From a virus (lineage: Duplodnaviria > Heunggongvirae > Uroviricota > Caudoviricetes): DNA of 12,640 nt. This document shows, one piece after another, positions 142 to 12,640 of this stretch. A program made the translations under genes and the position numbers. The stretch is taken from the IMG/VR virus record IMGVR_UViG_2526164619_000008, positions 1 to 12,640 of that record, one strand, 5' to 3'. The notes beneath the pieces are model-generated. The model searched no databases and had not been told where the DNA came from. It worked only from the letters and a program-made list of their open reading frames with translations. How positions within the stretch are numbered: position 1 is the first letter of the stretch; each line of letters opens with the position of its first letter.

Positions 142-331
142 AGCGCTTGCTCCTTTTTCGGGGAGGCGCTAACCTATCACTTGCTTAGGGTAGACGGTTA
201 GGGCCTCGGTTAAACAAAAATGTTTTCCGGGGCCTTTCCACATCTGGCCTTCAGGTATTCCCTCCGACCATCAGCCGAAAGGCACCCGCGCGTAATCTAT
301 CGCTTTTTTGTTACTCCGGCAATTCTGCTCG

Positions 332-592
332 TTAATTCTGAGGTAAGGGCAAACTCATCTGATTGTTTCCTCTGTGTGAAGTTGGCAGTTCATGCCACGG
401 GATGCCCTCTGATGAGTGAATGGGGGAGGCGTGCTTTGAAGTGAATTTGTGGAAGGCTTCCAGTGTTGAGAAACATACGCCGCATTCTAGATTGTTACAC
501 TGATAATACTTTTGTCTCACGGTGTTTGAATCATTTTCCGGACGACTGGTGCGGATACGGGCAGATGCGCCACAAAGCGGACAACGGAACAT
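332..592 (-). CDS. ogr: Ogr/Delta-family zinc-finger late-gene transcription activator (86 aa, divergent)
   Basis: Translation begins MFRCPLCGASARIRTSRPE...YYQCNNLECG, matching the P2 Ogr N-terminus (recalled MFHCPLCQHAAHARTSR...YHQCQNVNCS) and its Cys-x2-Cys...Cys-x4-Cys arrangement. It sits downstream of gene D in the same orientation, as in P2, but with cargo in between. Confidence 0.7.
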   Translation of the reverse strand: MFRCPLCGASARIRTSRPENDSNTVRQKYYQCNNLECGVCFSTLEAFHKFTSKHASPIHSSEGIPWHELPTSHRGNNQMSLPLPQN

Positions 593-654
593 AGCGACCT
601 CTCTTATTGTAGTGCTTGCACTATTCTAGGTTGTATTCTCTAAGATTTAAACAT

Positions 655-663
655 GACTTTCTC
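655..663. repeat. 9-bp target-site duplication (GACTTTCTC), left copy, of the first IS1
   Basis: Identical 9-mer immediately outside both IS1 ends (655..663 and 1432..1440). Confidence 0.85.
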
Positions 664-718
664 GGTAATGCTGCCAACTTACTGATTTAGTGTATGATGG
701 TGATTTTAAGGTGCTTGC

Positions 719-994
719 ATGGCTTCCATTTCCATCAGATGTCCTTCCTGCTCCGCTACTGAAGGCGTGGTGCGTAACGGCAAAAGCACTGCCGGACATC
801 AGCGCTATCTCTGCTCTCATTGCCGTAAAACATGGCAACTACAGTTCACTTACACCGCCTCTCAGCCCGGTACGCACCAGAAAATCATTGATATGGCCAT
901 GAATGGCGTCGGATGTCGCGCCAGTGCACGCATTATGGGCGTTGGCCTCAACACGGTTTTACGTCACTTAAAAAACTCAGGCCGCAGTCGGTAA
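719..994 (+). CDS. insA: IS1 InsA transposition regulator (91 aa)
   Basis: Translation [43 protein letters not shown]... is the recognisable InsA sequence. Confidence 0.95.
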
Positions 995-1416
995 CCTCGC
1001 GCATACAACCGGGCAGTGATGTGATTGTCTGCGCTGAAATGGACGAACAGTGGGGCTACGTCGGTGCTAAATCACGTCAGCGCTGGCTGTTTTACGCGTA
1101 TGACAGGATACGGAGGACGGTTGTGGCGCACGTCTTCGGTGAACGCACTCTGGCCACACTGGAGCGTCTTCTGAGCCTGCTGTCGGCCTTTGAGGTCGTG
1201 GTATGGATGACGGATGGCTGGCCGCTGTATGAATCACGCCTGAAGGGAAAGCTGCACGTTATCAGCAAGCGTTACACTCAGCGCATTGAGCGACATAATC
1301 TGAATCTGAGACAACATCTGGCAAGGCTGGGACGGAAGTCACTGTCGTTCTCAAAATCGGTGGAGCTGCATGACAAGGTCATCGGGCATTATCTGAACAT
1401 AAAACACTATCAGTAA
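913..1416 (+). CDS. insB: IS1 InsB reading frame, normally expressed as the InsAB' transposase by -1 frameshift at the A6C run 970..976
   Basis: Translation ...[26 protein letters not shown]...[38 protein letters not shown] is the recognisable InsB; AAAAAAC motif lies in the insA/insB overlap. Confidence 0.9.
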
Positions 1417-1431
1417 GTTGGAGTCATTATC

Positions 1432-1440
1432 GACTTTCTC
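1432..1440. repeat. 9-bp target-site duplication (GACTTTCTC), right copy, of the first IS1
   Basis: Exact repeat of 655..663. Confidence 0.85.
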
Positions 1441-1464
1441 TATATAATGATTTTTAGCATTAGT

Positions 1465-1496
1465 TAATAAACGAACGGCACTCTAAGGAGCGCCGT
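1465..1496 (-). terminator. Putative intrinsic terminator of the large cargo ORF
   Basis: On the minus strand, directly after the ORF stop: a 9-bp stem (ACGGCGCTC / GAGTGCCGT, one G-U pair) with a 4-nt loop, followed by TCGTTTATT. Folded by eye only. Confidence 0.45.
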
Positions 1497-1504
1497 CAAA
1501 GATA

Positions 1505-4336
1505 TTATTCTGATGTCACTCTTTGCGAGTGAGCTATTTTTAAATCAGCGTTTCCTTCAAATACTATATTCAACTCATAGTTAAGAGTTAGCTTGAATTT
1601 ATCTGAGTCACTTTTGATATTCTCTGAAGTGACATTTACTAACTTATTATTATCATATTCTCTAATAATTAATTTAGTGAAGTAGTTATCCTTTACCACT
1701 AGAGAAAATGGTTGATTAACAAATGGTAAGAAGTAAACCTTACAGGTACCGGATTCAGTAGTTATGTTCATAGAGCCATCATCATTTTTTCTCATTAGTT
1801 CTCTGAGGTTGGGATTATCGAAAAGCATACGATTATATTGCTGAAAGATCTCTTTACTCATCACAAGAACCAGTTTGCCAGCCAAGTCAGCAGATGATTT
1901 TATGTGATCAATCAACATATTGAAATCTTCTATTACGGTATGTTGCGAACAGCCAGTGCTAAATAAATTTGAAAGTATTATTCTCTGGATGTCCTTGAGA
2001 ATTAAGTCTGCTTGAATATCACCTTCATTGATATAAGGGATGGATTCTATTCCTTCGGCATACGGTTCTTTATCTATCTTAATAGATATCTTATGTTTTG
2101 TGAAACAATCGCTAGCCTGCTTAAAATCAATAGATTTGAAAAGTGAAAGAGGGAGTGTTTTCTTGATGCGTTTACGAAGATGTTCTGATGTTTTACGTGC
2201 AGTGCTATCTAGTCGATGTACATCTATGGCAGCATCCTGAAGTCTCATATCAAGATCTTTCTTTAGCATGTTAATATGCTCTTGAAGCAACTTTCTTAAG
2301 TTTTCTTTTTTTGTTTGGAGATCGTCCAATGTTAAAGTCAGCTTGATTTTAGTGTATTCGATGGAGTTACAAATTTTTGATAATACTCCAATGAGTCGTT
2401 GCTTCTCACGATATGTTATATAGTTTTTTTCTATTGCTTCTTTTATTTCTTTTGATACGCTATCGTTCTTGTTAGAAAAAATTAATAATAGCTGAACCCA
2501 TGATTGTTCCATATCAATAAATCCACAGTCAAAAACATTACTGTAAACTCTGCCCATCACCATGTCTGTTTTATCATAGTCACGTAAACGCCTTGCTAAA
2601 CTATTCATCCACCCATTGTGCTCCATATTTTCAGACCATGTCCACAGGCAGATTCTAATTAATATCTTGATTAGTTGGCTTGCATTATCAATTTCTTCAG
2701 TGGGAGTTTCATATCCACCGGTTTGGTCAATAAGTTTACCCTCTAAAATAAGTTTAATGTAATGTGTCATTAATTTGTCAGAAATATTGATTCTTGATGT
2801 CAGATAAAGACATGTGCATATACGCATGTCAGTCAACGCATTTATGATGGCAATATTGAACCACTCTCTGTCTGAATTGAAGTTTAGTTTTTTGGATATG
2901 AAAAAACCCGGGTTAAAAAGCTGGCCTTTGTAACTGTATTTTTCTACCGAATGGCTGTCAATATTCATTGAGTGCTGCCATCGGTTAATAAGAACGACGG
3001 CTGTATCAATAGTAGAAGGATCGCGAGTCTGTGTTGCATCAATAATCATCGATGGAAGTTCTTGTAGTTGCGTTTTGCAAAATAATTCAAATAAATCTGA
3101 ATTCTCTGTATTGCAGAAACGAAAGTTTATGCTTTCTTGATATTGCTCCCAAACAGTGGTATAGGTTCTTAATATACGATTATAACGTGAACGAAGCGAG
3201 GCATTTAAGAGTGATTGGTTGTTTCGGAACCATTCTGTTAATATTGACCATTGTGAACGAGTAATTCCCATATAGATACAAAGTTCATTGGTGATAAGAT
3301 GTTTTCTATTATTGATAATACGCACTCCGCTCCAAAGACATAATTCAAAAAATCTTTCAGAAAGATTAATTTTATCCATGGAATTATTTGATATTTTATA
3401 AACTTCATCTGAAAACTCATATTGAAAACTCCGTTCAAATAATTCTGTAGTGATCAGTAAGAAGTTATTGTTGGTATTATCATCTTGAAAAAAATACAAA
3501 TCGCAGAGATTATTAAAGTTATTAATTAATGCAGAGATAGCATTGTCAAAACTAATGAGATCAGAATCCCGCAGATACATATACGTATCTGCTGTTATAG
3601 CCTGCATTGTAAGACTTACGGAAAAATCTCCTCCTTTAATCGGAGCCCTATAAAAACATTGCTTAAGTATTTTTATTAATAAGCTGTCTGGTTTGATATT
3701 TTTAACGCTAAAAAGTATCTTACCCGTGGATTCTGTTTCTTTTGTACGATTATCACCAATGACAAATGACGCAAAATGATTCTTCTTTTTTAGTTGGTAA
3801 TTAATAAGATTAAGAGTAAGTTGAAAAGGACGGTGATATAAACTTAACTCATCTTCCTTAGAATAACTGCTAGCCACAGATATGTATTCTCCTTTGTAAC
3901 CGGCTTGCTTGATTTCTAAATTTGAATAGTTATGTTTTTGATAGATAGGGTATAACCTAAGCTTGGCTGAGATTTTGTTACAAATATGGGGCATTACTAT
4001 TTCGAAGGCAATGTATCGCTTTATAATTATTTGCCGTTTTACATCATCAAGAATTTCAAGACTCACGATAAAGAACCAAATAGAAAGAACTATGTTTATC
4101 AAAAGCCATAATATGCTGATTAGACAAGCTATACCATAAAGATAACTTCCAAAGACAGTTTTAATTAGTACACTGAGAAGTATAAATCCTGATAAGAAAA
4201 GCCCGCTGAGTCCAGCAAGCATGAATCCTGAGTAACGCTGATAAGCAGTTTGGGCTATTTTTCTATCTGCCTTTTTTTGGAATAAGACACTTACTAAACC
4301 TATAACAAGTGGGTATACAATACCAATAATTGTCAA
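1505..4336 (-). CDS. Large orphan protein (~943 aa) with a hydrophobic N-terminal region (about three predicted transmembrane helices) and a long Ile/Asn/Lys-rich soluble domain with coiled-coil-like stretches; function unknown
   Basis: Single uninterrupted ORF in a visibly AT-rich segment. The ORF-track start is TTG at 4336; the first in-frame ATG is at 4222 (codon 39), so the true start is uncertain. No Walker A or other catalytic motif recognised by eye. Confidence 0.7.
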   Translation of the reverse strand: MTIIGIVYPLVIGLVSVLFQKKADRKIAQTAYQRYSGFMLAGLSGLFLSGFILLSVLIKTVFGSYLYGIACLISILWLLINIVLSIWFFIVSLEILDDVKRQIIIKRYIAFEIVMPHICNKISAKLRLYPIYQKHNYSNLEIKQAGYKGEYISVASSYSKEDELSLYHRPFQLTLNLINYQLKKKNHFASFVIGDNRTKETESTGKILFSVKNIKPDSLLIKILKQCFYRAPIKGGDFSVSLTMQAITADTYMYLRDSDLISFDNAISALINNFNNLCDLYFFQDDNTNNNFLLITTELFERSFQYEFSDEVYKISNNSMDKINLSERFFELCLWSGVRIINNRKHLITNELCIYMGITRSQWSILTEWFRNNQSLLNASLRSRYNRILRTYTTVWEQYQESINFRFCNTENSDLFELFCKTQLQELPSMIIDATQTRDPSTIDTAVVLINRWQHSMNIDSHSVEKYSYKGQLFNPGFFISKKLNFNSDREWFNIAIINALTDMRICTCLYLTSRINISDKLMTHYIKLILEGKLIDQTGGYETPTEEIDNASQLIKILIRICLWTWSENMEHNGWMNSLARRLRDYDKTDMVMGRVYSNVFDCGFIDMEQSWVQLLLIFSNKNDSVSKEIKEAIEKNYITYREKQRLIGVLSKICNSIEYTKIKLTLTLDDLQTKKENLRKLLQEHINMLKKDLDMRLQDAAIDVHRLDSTARKTSEHLRKRIKKTLPLSLFKSIDFKQASDCFTKHKISIKIDKEPYAEGIESIPYINEGDIQADLILKDIQRIILSNLFSTGCSQHTVIEDFNMLIDHIKSSADLAGKLVLVMSKEIFQQYNRMLFDNPNLRELMRKNDDGSMNITTESGTCKVYFLPFVNQPFSLVVKDNYFTKLIIREYDNNKLVNVTSENIKSDSDKFKLTLNYELNIVFEGNADLKIAHSQRVTSE

Positions 4337-4871
4337 TTGGCCACTTAAAATGGTTGTTTGCCATTCGGTTAATGAATGCCTAAACGGGAAATAATGTAAA
4401 AGATTATTTTTTATAAATAATTCGTTTAAATATCCAACATAAAGTAGTACAAATGAAAAAGCTGATATGCAAAGTACTGATTTAACCGGTGAGGATGTTA
4501 ATCTTATGATGTTTTTTCAATAAAATTCCATTTTAAATTCGAATAAAATGGATTTTTAACCATTTTATTACGAACATAGTTCTTTGCTAAAATCTCTGTT
4601 GCACTTAAAAATTGTCCAATCATGAATTACTCTTCTATAAAGTGTGGGTCTACTAACTAAACTGGAATTTTTACTATTGAGTCATATTCCCTTGGACGGG
4701 ATGGACTGTGAAGATTATACTTGACTTCCTCTGTCATGTGGGAAAAACATCCGTATTATTGTTAGCATCTGGTTGATGCCCCAACCTCTGACATCTAGTG
4801 GGCTGATACATTATCTTTTGTTCTTACTGTCAGTGTAGAAGCACATCTCAAAAATAATATTTTTAAGAGAT
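4337..4871 (-). promoter_or_regulatory. AT-rich ~535-bp non-coding leader between the D stop and the cargo ORF; presumed promoter/regulatory region
   Basis: No ORF longer than ~26 codons on either strand; composition shifts abruptly at the gene D stop codon (4872). Confidence 0.35.
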
Positions 4872-5980
4872 TTATTCTATTTCTGCTATCCATTCCGGGA
4901 TTTTTGCTTCAAGTTCAAGCTGCGTGGTAAAGCCGCTGTTATCAATGGTGTGCTCGGCTTTTGCAATAATCCAGTCCTGATAATCAATCTCGCTTTTAAA
5001 GCCTGTCACTGTGCCATGCATTTCGGGATAGAGTTCTGCACGACCACGCGCCAGCGTGATGGAGAATGATGCGGCTCCGCGTTGTAGCTGCTGCCACTTT
5101 GCCGCCGCTGCGCGTCTTGCTGCCTGCTCGTTCTGATAAGTCTTGCGTAACACAAACACGTTGCCTTCCGCACCTTCCATATAGTCGCCTTCCCGACTGC
5201 TGCTTTTCTCCTTTTTGGGTTTTGGCGGTTTGCGGCGTTTCACGTTGACTTTTTTCTTTTCCCGTAATTAAGATCAAGCCAGTAGGCGCGTACCCCTGTA
5301 TACGCCTCGCGGTCAGCAATGCGGAACTGATGGCGATCGCCGCTGCTGCGTGTAATGGCGAACGAGGGCAACGGCTGCCCCTGTGCGTTCACGCCACCAC
5401 CTGGCATGATGAATAACAGATTGCCGCTTTTTACCGTGGCGATTGCTCCCAGCATTTCCGCCATGCGCGTAAGAAAGGACATGTCGCTTTCTTCGGTCTG
5501 GTCGGCGTGGTCGATTTCGATATCCATCAGCATTTCGCTGATTTGCGGTTTCAGGCCGTACCGATGAGCGATGGCGGATACCACACGCTCAACGGTCACA
5601 TCATGCCAGGACACCTCACGTTTAACGTTAAATTCATCCCGAAAATCTGCGCTTCTGGCTGAAACAGTCAGCCTGTCCGGCGGTCCTTCGTGAGCGATTT
5701 CATCAACAATGTAAGTGCCTTTTTCTGTCAGCGGTTCCCCTTTCCAGCCAATGAGAACCGTCAGACGCGCGCCCCGTGGCGGTAGCTGCAACTGACCATC
5801 CGCATCATCCAGCGTGATGGTGAGCTGGTCCGCCTCAAATCCCCGGTTGTCGGTCAGTGACAGGCACATCAGGCGCTCCGCCACGCCTGACAGCGTTTTA
5901 CCCTCCGAGAGAATATCAAAATCCGGCATTTTCACGGGGGCCGTGCCCTGACTGAGCAATTGCATGGTGGTGTCGGTCAT
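4872..5980 (-). pseudogene. D: P2-type tail protein D, interrupted by one frameshift in a homopolymer run (5250..5255)
   Basis: Two adjacent minus-strand ORFs (5240..6112 and 4872..5243) together match gpD (LTDNRGFEADQLTITLDDADGQLQLP..., SWHD, ITRSSGDRHQFRIADREAYTGV, REGDYMEGAEGNVFVL, GFTTQLELE). Adding one A to the AAAAAA run restores ...GKRKKVNVKRRKPPKPKKE.... Likely start is ATG at 5980 (MTDTTMQLL) with AGGGAGGGAG upstream. Confidence 0.85.
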
Positions 5981-6137
5981 CTGCTCCCTCCCTGTGCGGC
6001 ATGGTCGCATGTGCGTGCGGATGGGGTTACTGCTTTTTGTTGTCGCCGTGGCGGGAGAACGGCGCAGGGGTGAGATTGCGCGCGTGGTGGGTGATGATTG
6101 TTGCTGAATCATTTAACGGATACAAGGGGCTGAAGCT

Positions 6138-7322
6138 ATGAGTGAAACTCGTTTTCATGGTGCCCGTGTTACGGAGAATACCGACCTGGTAACAGCGATT
6201 AACGATGTTGATTCCAGCGTTATCGGTATCGTGGCAACGGCGGATGATGCGGACGCGAAGCTGTTCCCGCTGAACAAGCCCACACTGCTGACCCGCGTCA
6301 ATGACGTGCTGGGAAAATGCGGGACAACGGGGACGCTTTATCGTGCGCTTAAGGCCATCGCAGACCAGGTGAGCACAAAGGTGATCGTCGTTCGCGTGGC
6401 TGAACACAAAGAAGAAGACGGAAAGACGCAGGATCAACTGGTTATCGGTGGTTCTGAGGATGACGGCAGCTATACGGGGATGTATGCGCTGCTTGTTGCA
6501 GAGCAGGATGAAAGCATCGGATACCGTCCGCATATTCTGGCCGCGCCGGAGCTGGACACGGAGGCGGTAACAAAATCCCTGTGCGTGATTGCAGATAAAC
6601 TGCGCGCGTTTGTGTATGCCTCATGTCATGGCTGTAACACGATGGCCGAGGCAATTACCTACCGCCAGAAATTCAACGAACGTGAGGTGATGCTCTTATG
6701 GCCGGACTTCATCGCCTACAACCCGAAAAATGGCAAAAACGAAACGTTCCCCGCGCCTGCCTATGCGTGCGGCCTTCGTGCGTACATTGACCATGAACAG
6801 GGATGGCACAAATCGCTGTCCAACGTTCCGGTTAAAAATGTGCTGGGGATGTCGAGGCATGTGTTCTGGTCGTTGCAGGCCGAAGACAGCGATGCCAACA
6901 GCCTCAACAACAAAGAAATCACGACCATTATTCGTCGCAACGGGTTCCGCTTCTGGGGTAACCGCACACCGGAAACGAATGCCTACATCTTTGAGGTGTA
7001 TACCCGAACCGCACAGGTGCTGGCTGATTCAATTGCGGAAGCGCAGTTTGAAACCATCGACAGTCCACTGACGCCTGCGAATGTGAAGGATGTTATCAGT
7101 GCCATCAGGGCAAAACTGGATTCACTGGTGACTGCCGGGAAACTGATTGGCGCGGAGTGCTGGTATGACGTGGTGGATAACAGCACCACGGATTTACGTC
7201 AGGGACGTGTGCGTATTCGCTACAAATATACGCCCGTTCCGCCACTGGAAGACATGGAGCTTTACCAGACGTTTACTGATGAATACTTTGAACCCGCATT
7301 TGCGGTGCTGGGAGGTGCCTGA
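6138..7322 (+). CDS. FI: P2-type contractile tail sheath protein FI (394 aa)
   Basis: Translation contains DADAKLFPLNKPTLL, KLRAFVYAS, LLWPDF, EQGWHKSLSNV, RRNGFRFWGNRT, YTRTAQVLAD, YKYTPVPPLE, which match recalled P2 FI blocks; size matches (P2 FI ~396 aa); AAGGGG RBS. Confidence 0.9.
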   Translation: MSETRFHGARVTENTDLVTAINDVDSSVIGIVATADDADAKLFPLNKPTLLTRVNDVLGKCGTTGTLYRALKAIADQVSTKVIVVRVAEHKEEDGKTQDQLVIGGSEDDGSYTGMYALLVAEQDESIGYRPHILAAPELDTEAVTKSLCVIADKLRAFVYASCHGCNTMAEAITYRQKFNEREVMLLWPDFIAYNPKNGKNETFPAPAYACGLRAYIDHEQGWHKSLSNVPVKNVLGMSRHVFWSLQAEDSDANSLNNKEITTIIRRNGFRFWGNRTPETNAYIFEVYTRTAQVLADSIAEAQFETIDSPLTPANVKDVISAIRAKLDSLVTAGKLIGAECWYDVVDNSTTDLRQGRVRIRYKYTPVPPLEDMELYQTFTDEYFEPAFAVLGGA

Positions 7323-7819
7323 TGGCTGTGCCAAAACATCTTCGCTTTTTTACGCTGTTTGTGGATGGTGAAAACGAAGTGGGTAAGGTGACGTCCGTCA
7401 CTCTGCCTAAGCTGACGCGCAAAACCGACAGCTACCGGGGTGGTGGCATGATGGGTGCGGTAAGTATTGATCTCGGTCTGGACGACTCCGCGCTTGATGC
7501 GAGCTTTGTCATGGGGGGCGCAGTTCGTGAGCTGTTCCTTAAGTATGGCGGCACGATTGACGGCACGCTGCTGCGTTTTGCGGGTGAATACTACACCGAT
7601 GCAGAAAGCGACCTGTATGAAGTCGAAATGCGCGGACGTGTGACGGAAATTGATATGGGCGAAGCCACATCACACACTTACGCCATTAAAAACACCTACT
7701 ACAAGCTGAGTGTTAACGATCGCCCGTTGTGGGAGATTGACCTGCTGAACTTCATTTACCGGAAGGACGGCAAGGACATTGTGCCCGATCGCATCCGTTC
7801 CGCGCTTGGGCTTGGCTGA
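7322..7819 (+). CDS. FII: P2-type tail tube protein FII (165 aa)
   Basis: Start overlaps the FI stop (TGATG); GGAGGTG RBS; position and size match P2 FII. Confidence 0.85.
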   Translation: MAVPKHLRFFTLFVDGENEVGKVTSVTLPKLTRKTDSYRGGGMMGAVSIDLGLDDSALDASFVMGGAVRELFLKYGGTIDGTLLRFAGEYYTDAESDLYEVEMRGRVTEIDMGEATSHTYAIKNTYYKLSVNDRPLWEIDLLNFIYRKDGKDIVPDRIRSALGLG

Positions 7820-7874
7820 TAAGTAATATGCTGGCGGCGCAGTGCGTCGCCTCTGACTGAAAAGGAGACAACAG

Positions 7875-8249
7875 ATGAAAGACATCGATACTGAAACCCG
7901 GAATAACACCGTGGCGGATAATGTGACGGCAGTTGAGGATATGGCTGTCGAACGTGGCGTAAAACTGACCCGACCAATTGAGCGTGGTGGCGAAAAAATC
8001 ACGTATGTGGAGATCACCGGGGCTATTGAGCAGGCTGGATCCCTGCGTGGTCTGTCGCTGTCTGATGCGCTGAATCTGAAAGCGGATACCATGTTCACGC
8101 TGTTGCCTCGCGTGACCTCGCCACGACTGGATGAAGTGATGATTAAAAAAATGTCGTCACGCGATTTTATTCAGTTGTGCGCTGTGGCTGTAAATTTTAT
8201 GAGCGAGCCAGACTCTGGCGCGAAGAGCGTGCAGGAGACGGCAGCGTAA
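7875..8249 (+). CDS. E: Tail assembly chaperone E-like protein (124 aa)
   Basis: Called by synteny (directly after FII), AAAGGAG RBS 7 nt upstream of the ATG, and an overlapping -1 frame ORF as in the P2 E/E' pair. Not confirmed by sequence identity. Confidence 0.65.
   Translation: MKDIDTETRNNTVADNVTAVEDMAVERGVKLTRPIERGGEKITYVEITGAIEQAGSLRGLSLSDALNLKADTMFTLLPRVTSPRLDEVMIKKMSSRDFIQLCAVAVNFMSEPDSGAKSVQETAA
8192..8198 (+). other. Candidate -1 programmed frameshift heptamer A_AAT_TTT joining E to E'
   Basis: Zero-frame codons AAT TTT preceded by A give an X_XXY_YYZ heptamer inside the 8177..8249 overlap of the E frame and the -1 frame. Confidence 0.4.
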
Positions 8250-8389
8250 TCACCCTGGTGTGCTTTGAGCACATCGAAGATCTGGTGGCGGATATTGCCG
8301 CCATTTTTAACTGGTCGCCCGCCGAAATCTTCATGATGACGCCCGGCGAAGTGGTTAGCTGGCGTGAGCGGGCGGCACTTCGTAGCGGG
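8198..8389 (+). pseudogene. E' extension reading frame (-1 relative to E), 3' end cut by IS1
   Basis: The -1 frame stays open from 8177 and runs into IS1 with no native stop (...EVVSWRERAALRSGG then IS1-encoded NAANLLI*). Confidence 0.55.
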
Positions 8390-8444
8390 GGTAATGCTGC
8401 CAACTTACTGATTTAGTGTATGATGGTGATTTTAAGGTGCTTGC

Positions 8445-8720
8445 GTGGCTTCCATTTCCATCAGATGTCCTTCCTGCACCGCTACTGAAGGCGTGGTGCG
8501 TAACGGCAAAAGCACTGCCGGACATCAGCGCTATCTCTGCTCTCATTGCCGTAAAACATGGCAACTACAGTTCACTTACACCGCCTCTCAGCCCGGTACG
8601 CACCAGAAAATCATTGATATGGCCATGAATGGCGTCGGATGTCGCGCCAGTGCACGCATTATGGGCGTTGGCCTCAACACGGTTTTACGTCACTTAAAAA
8701 ACTCAGGCCGCAGTCGGTAA
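8445..8720 (+). CDS. insA: IS1 InsA (91 aa; GTG start in this copy)
   Basis: Same protein as 719..994 with one substitution (S12T); start codon GTG here versus ATG in the first copy. Confidence 0.95.
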
Positions 8721-9142
8721 CCTCGCGCATACAACCGGGCAGTGATGTGATTGTCTGCGCTGAAATGGACGAACAGTGGGGCTACGTCGGTGCTAAATCA
8801 CATCAGCGCTGGCTGTTTTACGCGTATGACAGGATACGGAGGACGGTTGTGGCGCACGTCTTCGGTGAACGCACTCTGGCCACACTGGAGCGTCTTCTGA
8901 GCCTGCTGTCGGCCTTTGAGGTCGTGGTATGGATGACGGATGGCTGGCCGCTGTATGAATCACGCCTGAAGGGAAAGCTGCACGTTATCAGCAAGCGTTA
9001 CACTCAGCGCATTGAGCGACATAATCTGAATCTGAGACAACATCTGGCAAGGCTGGGACGGAAGTCACTGTCGTTCTCAAAATCGGTGGAGCTGCATGAC
9101 AAGGTCATCGGGCATTATCTGAACATAAAACACTATCAGTAA
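8639..9142 (+). CDS. insB: IS1 InsB reading frame (InsAB' via -1 frameshift at A6C 8696..8702)
   Basis: Same as 913..1416 with one substitution (R55H). Confidence 0.9.
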
Positions 9143-9157
9143 GTTGGAGTCATTACC

Positions 9158-10353
9158 GAGTCGCGCATGGTGGCCCCGTTCCATTTGGGGTTCGGATGAC
9201 CGTTCTCCGTTGTTGCGTGGTATTTTGACGGGCAGTTGACAGTCAGAAACACCGCTTTGTCACCACGGGCTTCGGCCAGAGGTTCCAGCCCCTTCATGGT
9301 GGCCATCATTTCTGCCTTACGGTGAACCGGGTTACTTACTCCCGCGTAATACACTGTCTCGAGATCAATCGTGAACCCGTCTTCATTTTCCAGCATGAAA
9401 CTTTTCAGGAAATCGCGTGTTTTCTCGCGCTGTGCGCGAAACTCGCTTAACGCGTCCTGGCTCAGATAGGGCGATGTTTTTCTGAAAACCAGACAGGCGG
9501 CGCGGAGTTGTTCTTCTCTCCACTCGCAACGTAACAGCCACAGTTTGCGTTTCCACCATTCTGCACAGGTCAGGCGAAGGATTGCGCCCGGCAGCAGCTC
9601 CGTGTCCGGTTCGTTCCTCCGGTCTTTGTCTGTTGTCAGTGCGTCATAATGTGGAGGCATGGCGTGCAGGTGTAACGCCATGCGGGCCAGCATCTGATAC
9701 GCCTTCAGCGTTACATCCATGGTCAGTTCGCCATCGGTCGCGCCAAAGCCATCGCAGAGTTTTTCGAAGGTGCTGCTGAACATCGCTGCCGTCATGGTGG
9801 CCAGTGTCTGTATCTGGTGTTTGTTGAGCTGCGGCAGGTAAAGCAAATCGTCCAGGCGTTCGCGTCCGGCAAGGGAGCGATAACCCTGTGTCAGCCAGCG
9901 GTGATCGGTGCGCTCCAGACGTTCGAATATTTTGCGCAGGTTTCCGCGCGCGTAGCGTTCAGCCTGCCAGCTCTTTTTGCCTTTCTGACGATCGGCTTCC
10001 TGTTTTTTGCGCAGGAAGGAGAGGTGGCGAATAAGCGGATCGCGCAGATAGGACGGCAGCAGGCGCAGCGAGGCCATGGCTTCATCCACCGCGCCGCGTG
10101 CCTGTTTTCTGGCATCTCCTGCCAGTGTGATGGTTTTGTCCTGTTTTTCCTGTGCGTCCAGGCTTTTATTAATCAGGTTGCCCAGCGGCGTTGCGGAGAA
10201 CGCCGCATCAGCCATTTCCTGGCGGCGCTCGTTCTCTACCCGGTAGGCATCCAGCCAGGAGGAAAGCGCGGATTCAGGAGCGGGGATCCCCGTTCCTTCA
10301 CGCCCCACTGCGTGGCGCGGTTGTTGCCAGTCCCTGATGTACTCTGCCGTCAT
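9158..10353 (-). pseudogene. A: P2-type replication initiation protein A, N-terminal ~398 codons only; 3' part replaced by IS1
   Basis: Translation has HAVGREGTG and FLTVNCPSKYHATT blocks resembling recalled P2/186 A-protein motifs; the ORF runs from ATG 10353 into the IS1 right end, whose sequence supplies the last 7 codons and stop. P2 A is ~761 aa, so the catalytic C-terminal half is missing. Confidence 0.7.
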
Positions 10354-10359
10354 AGTGAT

Positions 10360-10725
10360 TTACTTCGTCATGCCATTCAGGGTGTCGCGGCAGACTGTAG
10401 CCAGCCGCTGAATTTCCAGCACGGTGTCTTCTGTGTCGGCATGGCGATGTGTGATGCGGATGCTGTCGGCAATCACATCGACGATTGCAGAGGATGGGCG
10501 CTGGTAAATGCCAATAACGGACGGGGTGCCACCTTCAATGCGGTAAAGCCTGTAATTTCCCTCGTGGCTGTCAATCATGTAGCGACCATCAATAACAATC
10601 TTTCCGTCAGCGAGCTGCGGTACAGGCAGGGATTTCAGGTACATGTCATAACGATCACGTACGCGAGCGGCAAGATCACGTTCTGTGTTGAGCAGGTATT
10701 CAAGAAAGTCGTTGGCGAGAATCAT
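10360..10725 (-). CDS. Hypothetical protein (121 aa), early-operon gene directly upstream of A
   Basis: ORF with AGAGGA RBS 8 nt upstream of the ATG; stop 6 nt before the A start; not recognised. Confidence 0.6.
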   Translation of the reverse strand: MILANDFLEYLLNTERDLAARVRDRYDMYLKSLPVPQLADGKIVIDGRYMIDSHEGNYRLYRIEGGTPSVIGIYQRPSSAIVDVIADSIRITHRHADTEDTVLEIQRLATVCRDTLNGMTK

Positions 10726-10866
10726 TGCGGCAATCCTCTTGTTACAGATGTGCGAAGGCCTCCCGCCGCAAGGTGCAGGAAAGGCCCGGAATAGGAATTA
10801 ATGGAGTTTGTTTTGCTGCCGGATGAGCAGCTGAAGCCCGACGTGGTTTCCGGCAGTTGGAGGTGC

Positions 10867-11112
10867 TCATGCTCTGATTTCCCTCAGTAGCTGGTTGAAC
10901 ATCTGGGTTAGTGGGTTGCTACACCCAAACGGCATCGGGTTTACCTGATAAGAAAAGCGCCCGCCTGTTTTGCGCTCTTTTCTTATGACTGAACCGCTGC
11001 GCCAGAGACGGCGTAGCTCCGCATTAATGGTTGTGGTTGGTGTATTCAGTACTGCGGCGATTTCTCCACCGCTACAACCCGGATTGGCAGCGATGTAGTC
11101 CAGAATGATCAT
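10867..11112 (-). CDS. Hypothetical small protein (81 aa), possibly a winged-helix DNA-binding protein
   Basis: AGGAG RBS 8 nt upstream; ATGA start/stop overlap with the upstream ORF suggests translational coupling. Confidence 0.55.
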   Translation of the reverse strand: MIILDYIAANPGCSGGEIAAVLNTPTTTINAELRRLWRSGSVIRKERKTGGRFSYQVNPMPFGCSNPLTQMFNQLLREIRA

Positions 11113-11312
11113 CTGCGTGACTCCTGTACCTGTCTGATAAGATTTACCTGCACCACGTTGGTGGCGCAGAAGTAAGTGCCGTCAGTGAGATAGATGTGAT
11201 GTGCATCCTTTTCTGAACGGTGTTTGTCGATTGTGGTAATCAGGCGTTCGTCAACTTCGTATTCACGTCCTCTGGAGGTGAAACGAACGACAGGAAAATG
11301 CTTAATTGCCAT
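11109..11312 (-). CDS. Hypothetical small protein (67 aa from the ATG at 11312)
   Basis: Strong AAGGAGG RBS 5 nt upstream of the internal ATG (MAIKHFPVVRF...); the ORF track begins earlier at a GTG (11363) with no RBS. Confidence 0.55.
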   Translation of the reverse strand: MAIKHFPVVRFTSRGREYEVDERLITTIDKHRSEKDAHHIYLTDGTYFCATNVVQVNLIRQVQESRR

Positions 11313-11398
11313 TACGCCTCCTTGGCGTGTGCGAATACCTCCGCGAATGCGGATTGTTTTCACATTTTCTTATTTAACCTGGGGTCTTATTTGCGCGG

Positions 11399-11512
11399 TT
11401 ATTCTTCAGTGAAAAAGCGTTCAATCTTTTTTACTGAATTAATAATTCGCATAATCCCAATGGCGCAGACCACCGAAATAATCAGAACAAGCCATGAGAT
11501 AAATATACTCAT
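11399..11512 (-). CDS. Small hydrophobic peptide (37 aa), single predicted transmembrane helix
   Basis: Translation MSIFISWLVLIISVVCAIGIMRIINSVKKIERFFTEE; its ATG overlaps the TGA of the upstream ORF (ATGA). Absent from the ORF track because it is under 60 aa. Confidence 0.4.
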   Translation of the reverse strand: MSIFISWLVLIISVVCAIGIMRIINSVKKIERFFTEE

Positions 11513-11751
11513 GCGATATTTCCCAGCTTATACGGTTCAATATGTTCCCCGCATTCTGCGGCACAGATCAGCTCGGAAAGTTCGTTAAGTGCATCCAGAT
11601 CATCAGCGTAAAAAGCCACGTCATACAGACTTCGGATTGCTCTGGTCAATGAGTCACGGGCCGCACGTTCAGCATGAGCGCCTGATGCACTTAAGCGAAA
11701 ATAAAAACGCTCAAGTGCTTTGTTAATGAGAGTTTTATATTCTTTGCCCAT
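11509..11751 (-). CDS. Hypothetical protein (80 aa)
   Basis: ORF in the same minus-strand operon; weak RBS; not recognised. Confidence 0.5.
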   Translation of the reverse strand: MGKEYKTLINKALERFYFRLSASGAHAERAARDSLTRAIRSLYDVAFYADDLDALNELSELICAAECGEHIEPYKLGNIA

Positions 11752-11762
11752 AACAACGCCCT

Positions 11763-12050
11763 TTAATCTGCTTTCTGTATTTCAGCTTCTGAATCCATAC
11801 AAATAATTTCGATATAGGGTTCATCGCCATTAACCTGGCGTGCCTTTTCAGCTTCGCTAATGATTTCTCGTACGGTCTGGTACGGAAGTTCCACAAGCAG
11901 TCGCGTGCCGTTCAGATAAACGTAAGTGGCTTCGTCGGCTCCGTTTTTACCCGCCGGAGTCACTCCGTCAATAGCGGATGCACGTAATAACAGTTCACCG
12001 CGAAAATCAATAAAACGGATAAATACACCTTGTGCATGGTCTTTGGTCAT
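11763..12050 (-). CDS. Hypothetical protein (95 aa from the ATG at 12050)
   Basis: AGGTG RBS 4 nt upstream of the internal ATG (MTKDHAQGVFIRF...); the longer track ORF would overlap the upstream gene. Confidence 0.5.
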   Translation of the reverse strand: MTKDHAQGVFIRFIDFRGELLLRASAIDGVTPAGKNGADEATYVYLNGTRLLVELPYQTVREIISEAEKARQVNGDEPYIEIICMDSEAEIQKAD

Positions 12051-12060
12051 AAAGCACCTG

Positions 12061-12266
12061 TTATAAATCAGTCTGTTTAATAAAACTTTGCCCGCGAAGC
12101 AGACGATCAACCGTGCGAAGTGCTTCGTATAATGTGAAATCCTGCCCGAACTGATTGTCGCCACAGCTCAATGCAAAAATGCGGTTTCCGGTAAACGGAT
12201 TGCGTGGGCATTTGTGGATCACGATTCCAGCTTTCTCAATCAGCCAGGTGTGCTCGCCGATTTGTT
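12061..12266 (-). pseudogene. 5'-truncated gene fragment (C-terminal ~68 codons) cut by IS911
   Basis: The minus-strand ORF 12061..12339 takes its first ~24 codons from IS911 left-end sequence; native coding starts at the IS911 boundary (12266) with no internal Met. Confidence 0.45.

Positions 12267-12640
<374 letters not shown>

Follow-up and report, generated by a model that had tools for sequence, protein, structure and literature searches.

The locus and its gene content

The window, that is, the whole stretch of 12,640 nucleotides analysed here, matches contig AKMY01000025.1 with 100% identity; the contig belongs to assembly GCA_000268165.1, which is listed as Shigella flexneri K-315 (PMC6397287). 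Judged by its sequence, the window is a decayed P88-like prophage of a Shigella chromosome, where ihfA and btuC are its neighbours, and it holds the following features.

332-592, minus strand: ogr/delta-type late activator gene, retained
664-1431, plus strand: IS1 copy 1, a simple insertion with a 9-bp duplication, GACTTTCTC, at 655-663 and 1432-1440
4872-5980, minus strand: D, baseplate hub, natively divergent from FI
6138-7322, plus strand: FI, tail sheath, intact (Pfam/PHROGs)
7322-7819, plus strand: FII, tail tube, intact (Pfam/PHROGs)
7875-8249, plus strand: E, tail chaperone, intact
8177-8416, plus strand: E' reading frame, in the -1 frame relative to E, natively ending in ALRSGNADNEDS and a stop, now in ALRSGGNAANLLI and a stop
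8381-8389: left flank of IS1 copy 2, CGTAGCGGG, the final prophage bases ahead of the deletion
8390-9157, plus strand: IS1 copy 2, 768 bp, at the deletion junction and without a target-site duplication
8445-8720 and 8639-9142, plus strand: insA and insB', the reading frames of IS1 copy 2
9158-9166: right flank of IS1 copy 2, GAGTCGCGC, the initial prophage bases past the deletion
9136-10353, minus strand: truncated A (replication), an ORF of 405 codons with 398 of the 940 native codons and then an IS1-encoded tail
9158-12267, minus strand: retained early block (5' part of A and upstream small genes), colinear with positions 33932-37041 of the VG38-53E1 prophage at 98.1% identity
12268-12640, plus strand: left end of IS911, interrupting a DUF4761 gene of the prophage early region

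Two of these genes, E' and A, abut the second IS1 copy. E' is matched by the Pfam family PF06528 (Phage_P2_GpE) over profile positions 1-35 of 37 and, as the first-pass annotation had stated, enters IS1 without its native stop, so that the frame terminates at a TAG inside the left end of the element. The native end SGNADNEDS is replaced by SGGNAANLLI, with 7 native codons and the stop codon gone, and the start codon of T would be expected 11 nt past the left breakpoint. The resulting E'-IS1 fusion protein corresponds to the RefSeq entry WP_000333502.1, named for Shigella boydii. On the other side, A matches PF05840 (Phage_GPA) over profile positions 1-216 of 321 and reads into the element from the opposite strand; a count of the native codons gives 398, in agreement with the approximate figure proposed earlier, and 6-7 IS1-encoded codons form the tail of the ORF. 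In an alignment with P2 gpA, the HUH histidines H437/H439 and the tyrosines Tyr491/Tyr495, which correspond to Y450/Y454 of P2 gpA, map beyond codon 398 and are hence lost, which bears out the proposal that the catalytic part of A had been removed. Furthermore, the nick site of the P2 origin lies inside A, at codon 620, and by analogy the replication origin would also be gone from the remnant.

With regard to the remaining gene content, five small early genes recognised by Pfam and PHROGs lie on the minus strand beside the truncated A, and D is frameshifted in the present assembly at a T run (position 5261). A 4.2-kb AT-rich cargo region between ogr and D is absent from phage records and common to five E. 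coli prophages; its large ORF has no match in Pfam, PHROGs, PADLOC, NCBIfam or PDB sequences. IS1, IS911 and IS2 are all present within 13 kb.

The two IS1 copies and their flanks

Copy 2 has the length (about 768 bp) and the terminal repeats starting with GGTAATG that are characteristic of the IS1 family. Its inverted repeats are imperfect, span 23 nt (8390-8412 and 9135-9157) and are 87% complementary, and the overlap of insA and insB' holds an A6C motif for -1 frameshifting (TTAAAAAACTC, near 8696-8702). The 167-amino-acid product is matched by PF03400 (DDE_Tnp_IS1), and features annotated as 'IS1 family transposase' in E. coli genomes are 99% identical to this copy. What the missing duplication reveals is the past of copy 2; it does not call the identity of the copy as IS1 into question.

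Insertion of IS1 makes duplications of 8-9 bp (PMC12428005). At copy 1, the 9-bp duplication is perfect, which would occur by chance with a probability of about 4e-6, and the empty site is found in five complete E. coli genomes, where GACTTTCTC is present once and the identity is 99.2-99.8%. Copy 1 is accordingly confirmed as the simple insertion that it had been taken for. The flanks of copy 2, CGTAGCGGG and GAGTCGCGC, are identical at only one of nine positions, and no direct or inverted word of at least 5 nt is common to the two 29-bp sides of the element. Since no such word is shared, shifting the boundaries cannot restore a duplication, and a shifted or shorter duplication is ruled out. 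Homology to intact phages and prophages ends at 8389 and restarts at 9158, which indicates that the ends of copy 2 are correctly placed. The earlier description of the second IS1 as a copy with unrelated flanks and no target-site duplication thus stands, and the duplication that might have appeared after correction of the boundaries was not found in the word comparison of the 29-bp flanks.

Copies 1 and 2 are in direct orientation, differ at 4 of 768 positions and are 7.7 kb apart, bracketing 6.96 kb. A Tn9-type composite transposon consists of two direct IS1 copies around a cargo, and the two copies in the window resemble such a unit in being direct repeats around 6.96 kb. They differ from it in that the outer flanks, GACTTTCTC at 655-663 and GAGTCGCGC at 9158-9166, do not match and that copy 1 has a duplication of its own; with no matching duplication at the outer ends and no sign that the unit ever moved, a composite transposon is ruled out. 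The 4 differences between the copies were also considered as a sign of a recombinant IS1, for which they are uninformative without a panel of the other IS1 copies of the strain.

Native gene order in P88-like phages

The prophage is assigned by its sequence matches to the P88-like group (Xuanwuvirus, Peduoviridae) and is not P2-ordered. Phage P88 and the genus Xuanwuvirus are known systems (PMC5285337, PMC6456863), and a megablast search against phage records returned 13 P88-like (Xuanwuvirus) records at 91-98% identity, with P2 not among the matches. In all 13 of these records, the matches to the tail block and to the A block are co-stranded. The identity of the window to P88-like phages is 94-99%. 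Four of its blocks (1-633, 4876-8389, 9158-10840 and 10856-12267) are 94-98% identical to genomes of the P88 group, and the same four are colinear and co-stranded in NC_049391.1, the annotation of which places FI, FII, E, E', T and U on the minus strand and D, ogr and A on the plus strand. The opposition of FI-FII-E-E'-T-U to A, D and ogr is seen throughout the 13 P88-like records as well as in two intact E. coli prophages, 95NR1 and VG38-53E1. The window has this order too, with D (minus) followed by FI (plus), and E' (plus) facing A (minus).

P2 (NC_001895.1) shares with the window the families of ogr, D, FI, FII, E/E' with its -1 frameshift, and A with its HUH motif and two tyrosines. However, its annotation has FI-FII-E-E'-T-U-D-ogr and A all on one strand, so that the genes from FI to ogr form one co-oriented operon on the strand of A, whereas D and ogr of the window are opposite to FI-E'. 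P2 was consequently dropped as a comparator, its gene order being different from that of the true relatives. P88 and other members of Xuanwuvirus (NC_026014.1, NC_049391.1) have the same block order as the window, with an FI-to-U operon divergent from D and ogr; the window differs from them by the absence of 22.6-25.3 kb and by the presence of the 4.2-kb cargo and three IS insertions.

In an integrated P88-like prophage, E' and A already converge, at a distance of 22.6-25.3 kb, and a single colinear deletion is therefore enough to yield the junction. The first-pass annotation, which used P2 as its template, had regarded the convergence of E' and A as abnormal and had placed T, U, D and ogr among the genes between them. 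The first of these views has to be abandoned, since convergence is the native architecture of P88-like phages, to which the P2 template does not apply. The second holds for T and U; D and ogr, on the minus strand, never lay between the breakpoints and are still found at 4872-5980 and 332-592.

Extent and content of the deletion

The best comparator is VG38-53E1, one of the five E. coli genomes with the empty site of copy 1. Its P88-like prophage is intact and free of IS, lies at ihfA|btuC as the element of the window does, and has the large cargo gene between ogr and D in common with it. The window is colinear with this prophage over 1-663 (99.8% identity), 1432-8389 (97.5%) and 9158-12267 (98.1%), and what is missing at copy 2 amounts to 22,604 bp (11328-33931 in the coordinates of the VG38-53E1 prophage, with the left breakpoint at 11327 and the right one at 33932). 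In the genome record NZ_CP128578.1, this stretch covers 2487328-2509931. Homology stops at the IS1 termini to the base, so that the alignment to an intact related prophage, which the earlier annotation had called for, has mapped both breakpoints. In NC_049391.1, the breakpoints fall at 19581 (left) and 33383 (right) and the 40 bp on each side of copy 2 are identical; they lie at equivalent positions in the 95NR1 prophage. With phage P88_4B11 as the reference, the gap is 23,297 bp, and with the 95NR1 prophage it is 25,284 bp; these differences in size reflect variable fibre and cargo regions.

The deletion spans from 7 codons before the stop of E' to codon 398 of A. According to the annotation of VG38-53E1, 24 complete CDS are lost together with the end of E' and codons 399-940 of A, and the modules concerned comprise T, U, and the fibre, baseplate, lysis, head, terminase, portal and partition genes. 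The loss of the tape-measure gene T and of U, both of which lie within the missing stretch, had been foreseen from the window itself. The extent had been underestimated: T, U and half of A are indeed gone, but the loss is far larger, at 22.6 kb, and E' is barely truncated, by 7 codons. The remnant is unable to replicate or to build particles.

The comparisons show copy 2 to lie precisely where a single colinear deletion has removed internal prophage DNA. A single IS lies there, no duplication accompanies it, and its flanks are colinear and co-oriented in intact relatives, which is the pattern of a simple deletion. That a simple deletion took place and that IS1 marks its junction can be held with high confidence. 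Of the two rearrangements for which copy 2 had been proposed as a breakpoint marker, the deletion is retained and mapped to the exact junction, while the inversion is not, the orientation of the two sides being ancestral.

Recurrence of the junctions

Exact-protein look-ups of the two fusion proteins led to short contigs that end inside IS1 and to the source contig, the A-IS1 fusion protein being found on 5 short contigs. Both junctions are found again in independent short-read data, namely on contigs 189 and 292 of the assembly GCA_049894805.1 and in the Logan runs ERR5961276, ERR6006294 and SRR066117, the last of which gives contigs identical to the window. These recurring short contigs confirm each junction, not the linkage across IS1; AKMY01000025.1 (K-315) is the only sequence that physically links E', IS1 and A, and the other datasets stop inside IS1.

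When the two junctions were searched by megablast in 5,426 complete E. coli genomes, no genome covered either of them, and neither was found in exact-pattern scans of species-representative genomes, metagenome contigs and viral contigs. The junction queries used for genomes and contigs would also have picked up a complete IS1 inserted at one endpoint or the other. At neither endpoint did the 5,426 E. coli genomes and the contig scans, collections in which Shigella is barely sampled, show an IS1 flanked by a duplication, and exact scans of viral contigs for the single-insertion junctions gave none.

Routes to the junction

IS copies that lack a duplication have been explained by adjacent deletion or by recombination between IS copies (PMC11708052). 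In the first of these routes, IS1 would have inserted at either endpoint or somewhere within the lost segment, after which intramolecular replicative transposition by its transposase could have produced one adjacent deletion or several. Each such event would remove the DNA from the IS end to a new target, with the excised circle carrying off the second IS copy, and would leave a single IS1 flanked by halves of two different targets, and hence no duplication. IS1-promoted adjacent deletions were reportedly described by Reif and Saedler in 1975, and replicative deletions by IS1 reportedly by Turlan and Chandler in 1995 (EMBO J 14:5410), a paper that PMC12428005 cites. The window resembles these deletions in its single IS1 at the junction, the missing duplication, the removal of one neighbouring stretch and the colinearity of the flanks with the ancestor. 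It differs from them in that the ancestral insertion that fixes one endpoint was not found and in that the route is indistinguishable from recombination between two IS1 copies. In long-term evolution lines, 14 of 14 traceable IS-associated deletions were stepwise adjacent deletions (PMC11708052).

The alternative is RecA-type recombination between two independent IS1 insertions in the same orientation, one at the end of E' and the other in A, where the crossover would leave one IS1 with one half of each original duplication. The product predicted by this reading is the observed one, and IS1 is dense here, with two direct copies 7.7 kb apart in addition to IS911 and IS2. Deletions in Shigella have, moreover, been attributed to recombination between homologous IS copies (PMC7373316). 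Nonetheless, two prior independent insertions into GC-rich targets are required, neither single insertion turned up in any genome of the collections scanned, and no recombination has taken place between copies 1 and 2, the adjoining direct pair. On balance, a crossover of two IS1 copies is a credible origin of the junction, slightly less probable than adjacent deletion.

Since adjacent deletion and direct recombination between IS1 copies leave identical products, the sequence favours neither. Adjacent deletion is slightly favoured because it needs one primary insertion instead of two and because IS1 is known for such behaviour; this slight preference is one that we infer and not a result, and the adjacent-deletion route specifically is advanced tentatively, as a reading that falls a little short of an even chance. 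The GC content is 55-61% at both breakpoints compared with 23% at the target of copy 1. IS1 prefers AT-rich targets, and neither endpoint therefore resembles a typical IS1 target. The base composition of the breakpoints was dropped as a discriminator of mechanism, given that both routes use targets chosen by the transposase.

An artefact of assembly, in which two full IS1 insertions, in E' and in A, were collapsed into one while the 22.6 kb between them still exists, appears very unlikely. Under such a collapse, the genome would contain the junctions IS1-CGTAGCGGGAATGCAG and GCTGGAGTCGCGC-IS1, and short-read contigs that reach one junction or the other would be no different in appearance. Four IS copies lie within 13 kb on the source, a draft WGS contig, which has two 1-bp deletions in T runs relative to a sister assembly, so that its consensus may be imperfect. 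Against this, a 146-kb contig carries the E'-IS1-A join with unique sequence on both sides, and mate-pair constraints would be violated if 22.6 kb of unique DNA had been dropped. Furthermore, all the other contigs with this exact E protein are shorter than 10 kb, as expected if they end at IS1, and the three contigs aligned to the window all end inside IS1.

IS1 might also have arrived together with the 22.6-kb deletion in one step, by break capture or aberrant transposition, with no prior insertion and no duplication. One-step IS events free of duplication have been proposed for some cases of IS5 and IS481 (PMC11708052), and the GC-rich endpoints, atypical as IS1 targets, would suit an event of this kind, as would the fact that no intermediates were found. 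However, in the same paper every IS-associated deletion that could be followed over time was a stepwise adjacent deletion, and the absence of intermediates is weak evidence, Shigella being barely sampled in the collections searched. A one-step origin therefore seems highly improbable; if true, it would be a natural example of the duplication-free coupling of an IS to a large rearrangement that has been proposed from laboratory evolution (PMC11708052).

Finally, an inversion or complex rearrangement between IS1 copies that made A convergent with E', a reading that calls for a further IS1 copy bearing the reciprocal flanks, CCCGCTACG and GCGCGACTC, was suggested solely by the P2 gene order, would have given the opposite arrangement and is ruled out, to the point of being scarcely conceivable, by colinearity with three intact references (NC_049391.1, 95NR1 and VG38-53E1), all the P88-like phages and prophages examined already having the block order and relative orientation of the window.

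The deletion in the context of Shigella

Shigella chromosomes carry 229-348 IS copies, with an expansion of IS1, IS2 and IS911 (PMC7373316). The window resembles the IS-mediated prophage decay of Shigella (Hawkey et al. 2020, PMC7373316) in having the same set of IS, in the inactivation and deletion of phage DNA and in the recurrence of the deletion across several sequencing datasets, one of them with a protein named for S. boydii; with respect to the IS-mediated gene loss described in that work, there is no difference of substance, and the locus is one more instance of it. It is a case of routine IS-driven prophage decay in Shigella, the biology of which is already known.

The main value of the analysis is a correction, namely that convergent E' and A are native to P88-like phages and are uninformative about inversion. 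Where P2 is taken as the template for every P2-like prophage, rearrangements are wrongly inferred. In addition, the locus provides an example of IS1-linked prophage decay resolved to the base, for which the intact prophage of VG38-53E1 at the same site represents the 'before' state. No new question is opened by the locus, and the pairing of the window with VG38-53E1 could serve as a teaching case or as a benchmark.

Cargo carried by P88-like prophages

An AT-rich insert lies between the late activator gene ogr and the baseplate hub gene D. It is common to five E. coli prophages and absent from the P88-like phage records.

Insert and its coding region (window positions)
634-4875: AT-rich insert of 4.2 kb, 33% GC, between ogr and D
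1505-4336, minus strand: large cargo ORF (full-length version at 151-3270, minus strand, of L005, a contig with the same E protein)

The insert encodes a single large protein with a hydrophobic N-terminus, which has 943 aa in the window, compared with 1039 aa in the sister assembly GCA_049894805.1. This protein carries the database label 'MFS transporter', and it had no match in Pfam, PHROGs, PADLOC, NCBIfam or PDB sequences. Its 183 homologues, of about 1040-1069 aa, are found in Enterobacterales; those examined are single genes located on large plasmids or islands, with genes for AAA_15/21 ATPases, RES, DUF3800, HNH and FRG proteins as neighbours. The large cargo gene is a candidate for uncharacterised cargo involved in phage defence or exclusion.

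P88-like prophages have a slot of variable cargo between the replication gene A and the portal gene. This slot, seen downstream of A in phage P88_4B11 (L001) and in L004, belongs to the DNA that the window has lost. ParM-type partition genes occupy it in P88_4B11 and in the intact prophage of E. coli VG38-53E1; E. coli 95NR1 has an AAA ATPase together with an S8 peptidase there, and other P88-like prophages carry Fic/Phd, DUF3800 or DUF4760 genes.

Single-base deletions in T runs

Relative to GCA_049894805.1 and the short-read run ERR6006294, the window presents two 1-bp deletions in T runs, at 4518 (T7 to T6) and 5261 (T5 to T4). The former truncates the cargo ORF from 1039 to 943 aa, while the latter causes a frameshift in gene D, whose 369 aa are split into 246 and 123. 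These deletions may be true strain mutations or homopolymer errors of the platform, either origin being possible since the Logan assembly of SRR066117 also has T4 in D, as in the window.

Insertion sequences

The two IS1 copies (664-1431 and 8390-9157) are direct repeats that span 664-9157 and enclose 6.96 kb with the cargo ORF, D and the tail genes FI, FII, E and E'. The pair resembles the composite geometry of Tn9 and constitutes a substrate for another deletion. Comparison of the outer flanks of this unit revealed no match, and there is thus no sign that it has moved in the past. The copies differ in the insA start codon at IS position 56, which is ATG in copy 1 (window 719) and GTG in copy 2 (window 8445), and in the right inverted repeat, whose terminal base pair distinguishes ATTATC in copy 1 from ATTACC in copy 2.

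A further element interrupts the DUF4761 gene of the prophage, at the equivalent of 37041/37042 in the VG38-53E1 prophage.

12268-12640, continuing beyond the window (L007, 10396-12375): IS911 left end

IS911 is itself broken about 680 bp in by an opposite-strand element, which we take to be IS2; in that case, three IS families would be represented by four copies within 13 kb.

Integration sites

The opposite end of the prophage adjoins ihfA-pheT-pheS-rplT-rpmI-infC-thrS in the K-315 contig.

1-331, continuing leftwards in the K-315 contig (L021, 14196-21895): prophage end with ogr and a hok/gef-type toxin gene

In E. coli 95NR1, the same P88-like phage type occupies another site, pdxB|flk, which together with the ihfA-side site in K-315 indicates at least two integration sites for the P88-like group.
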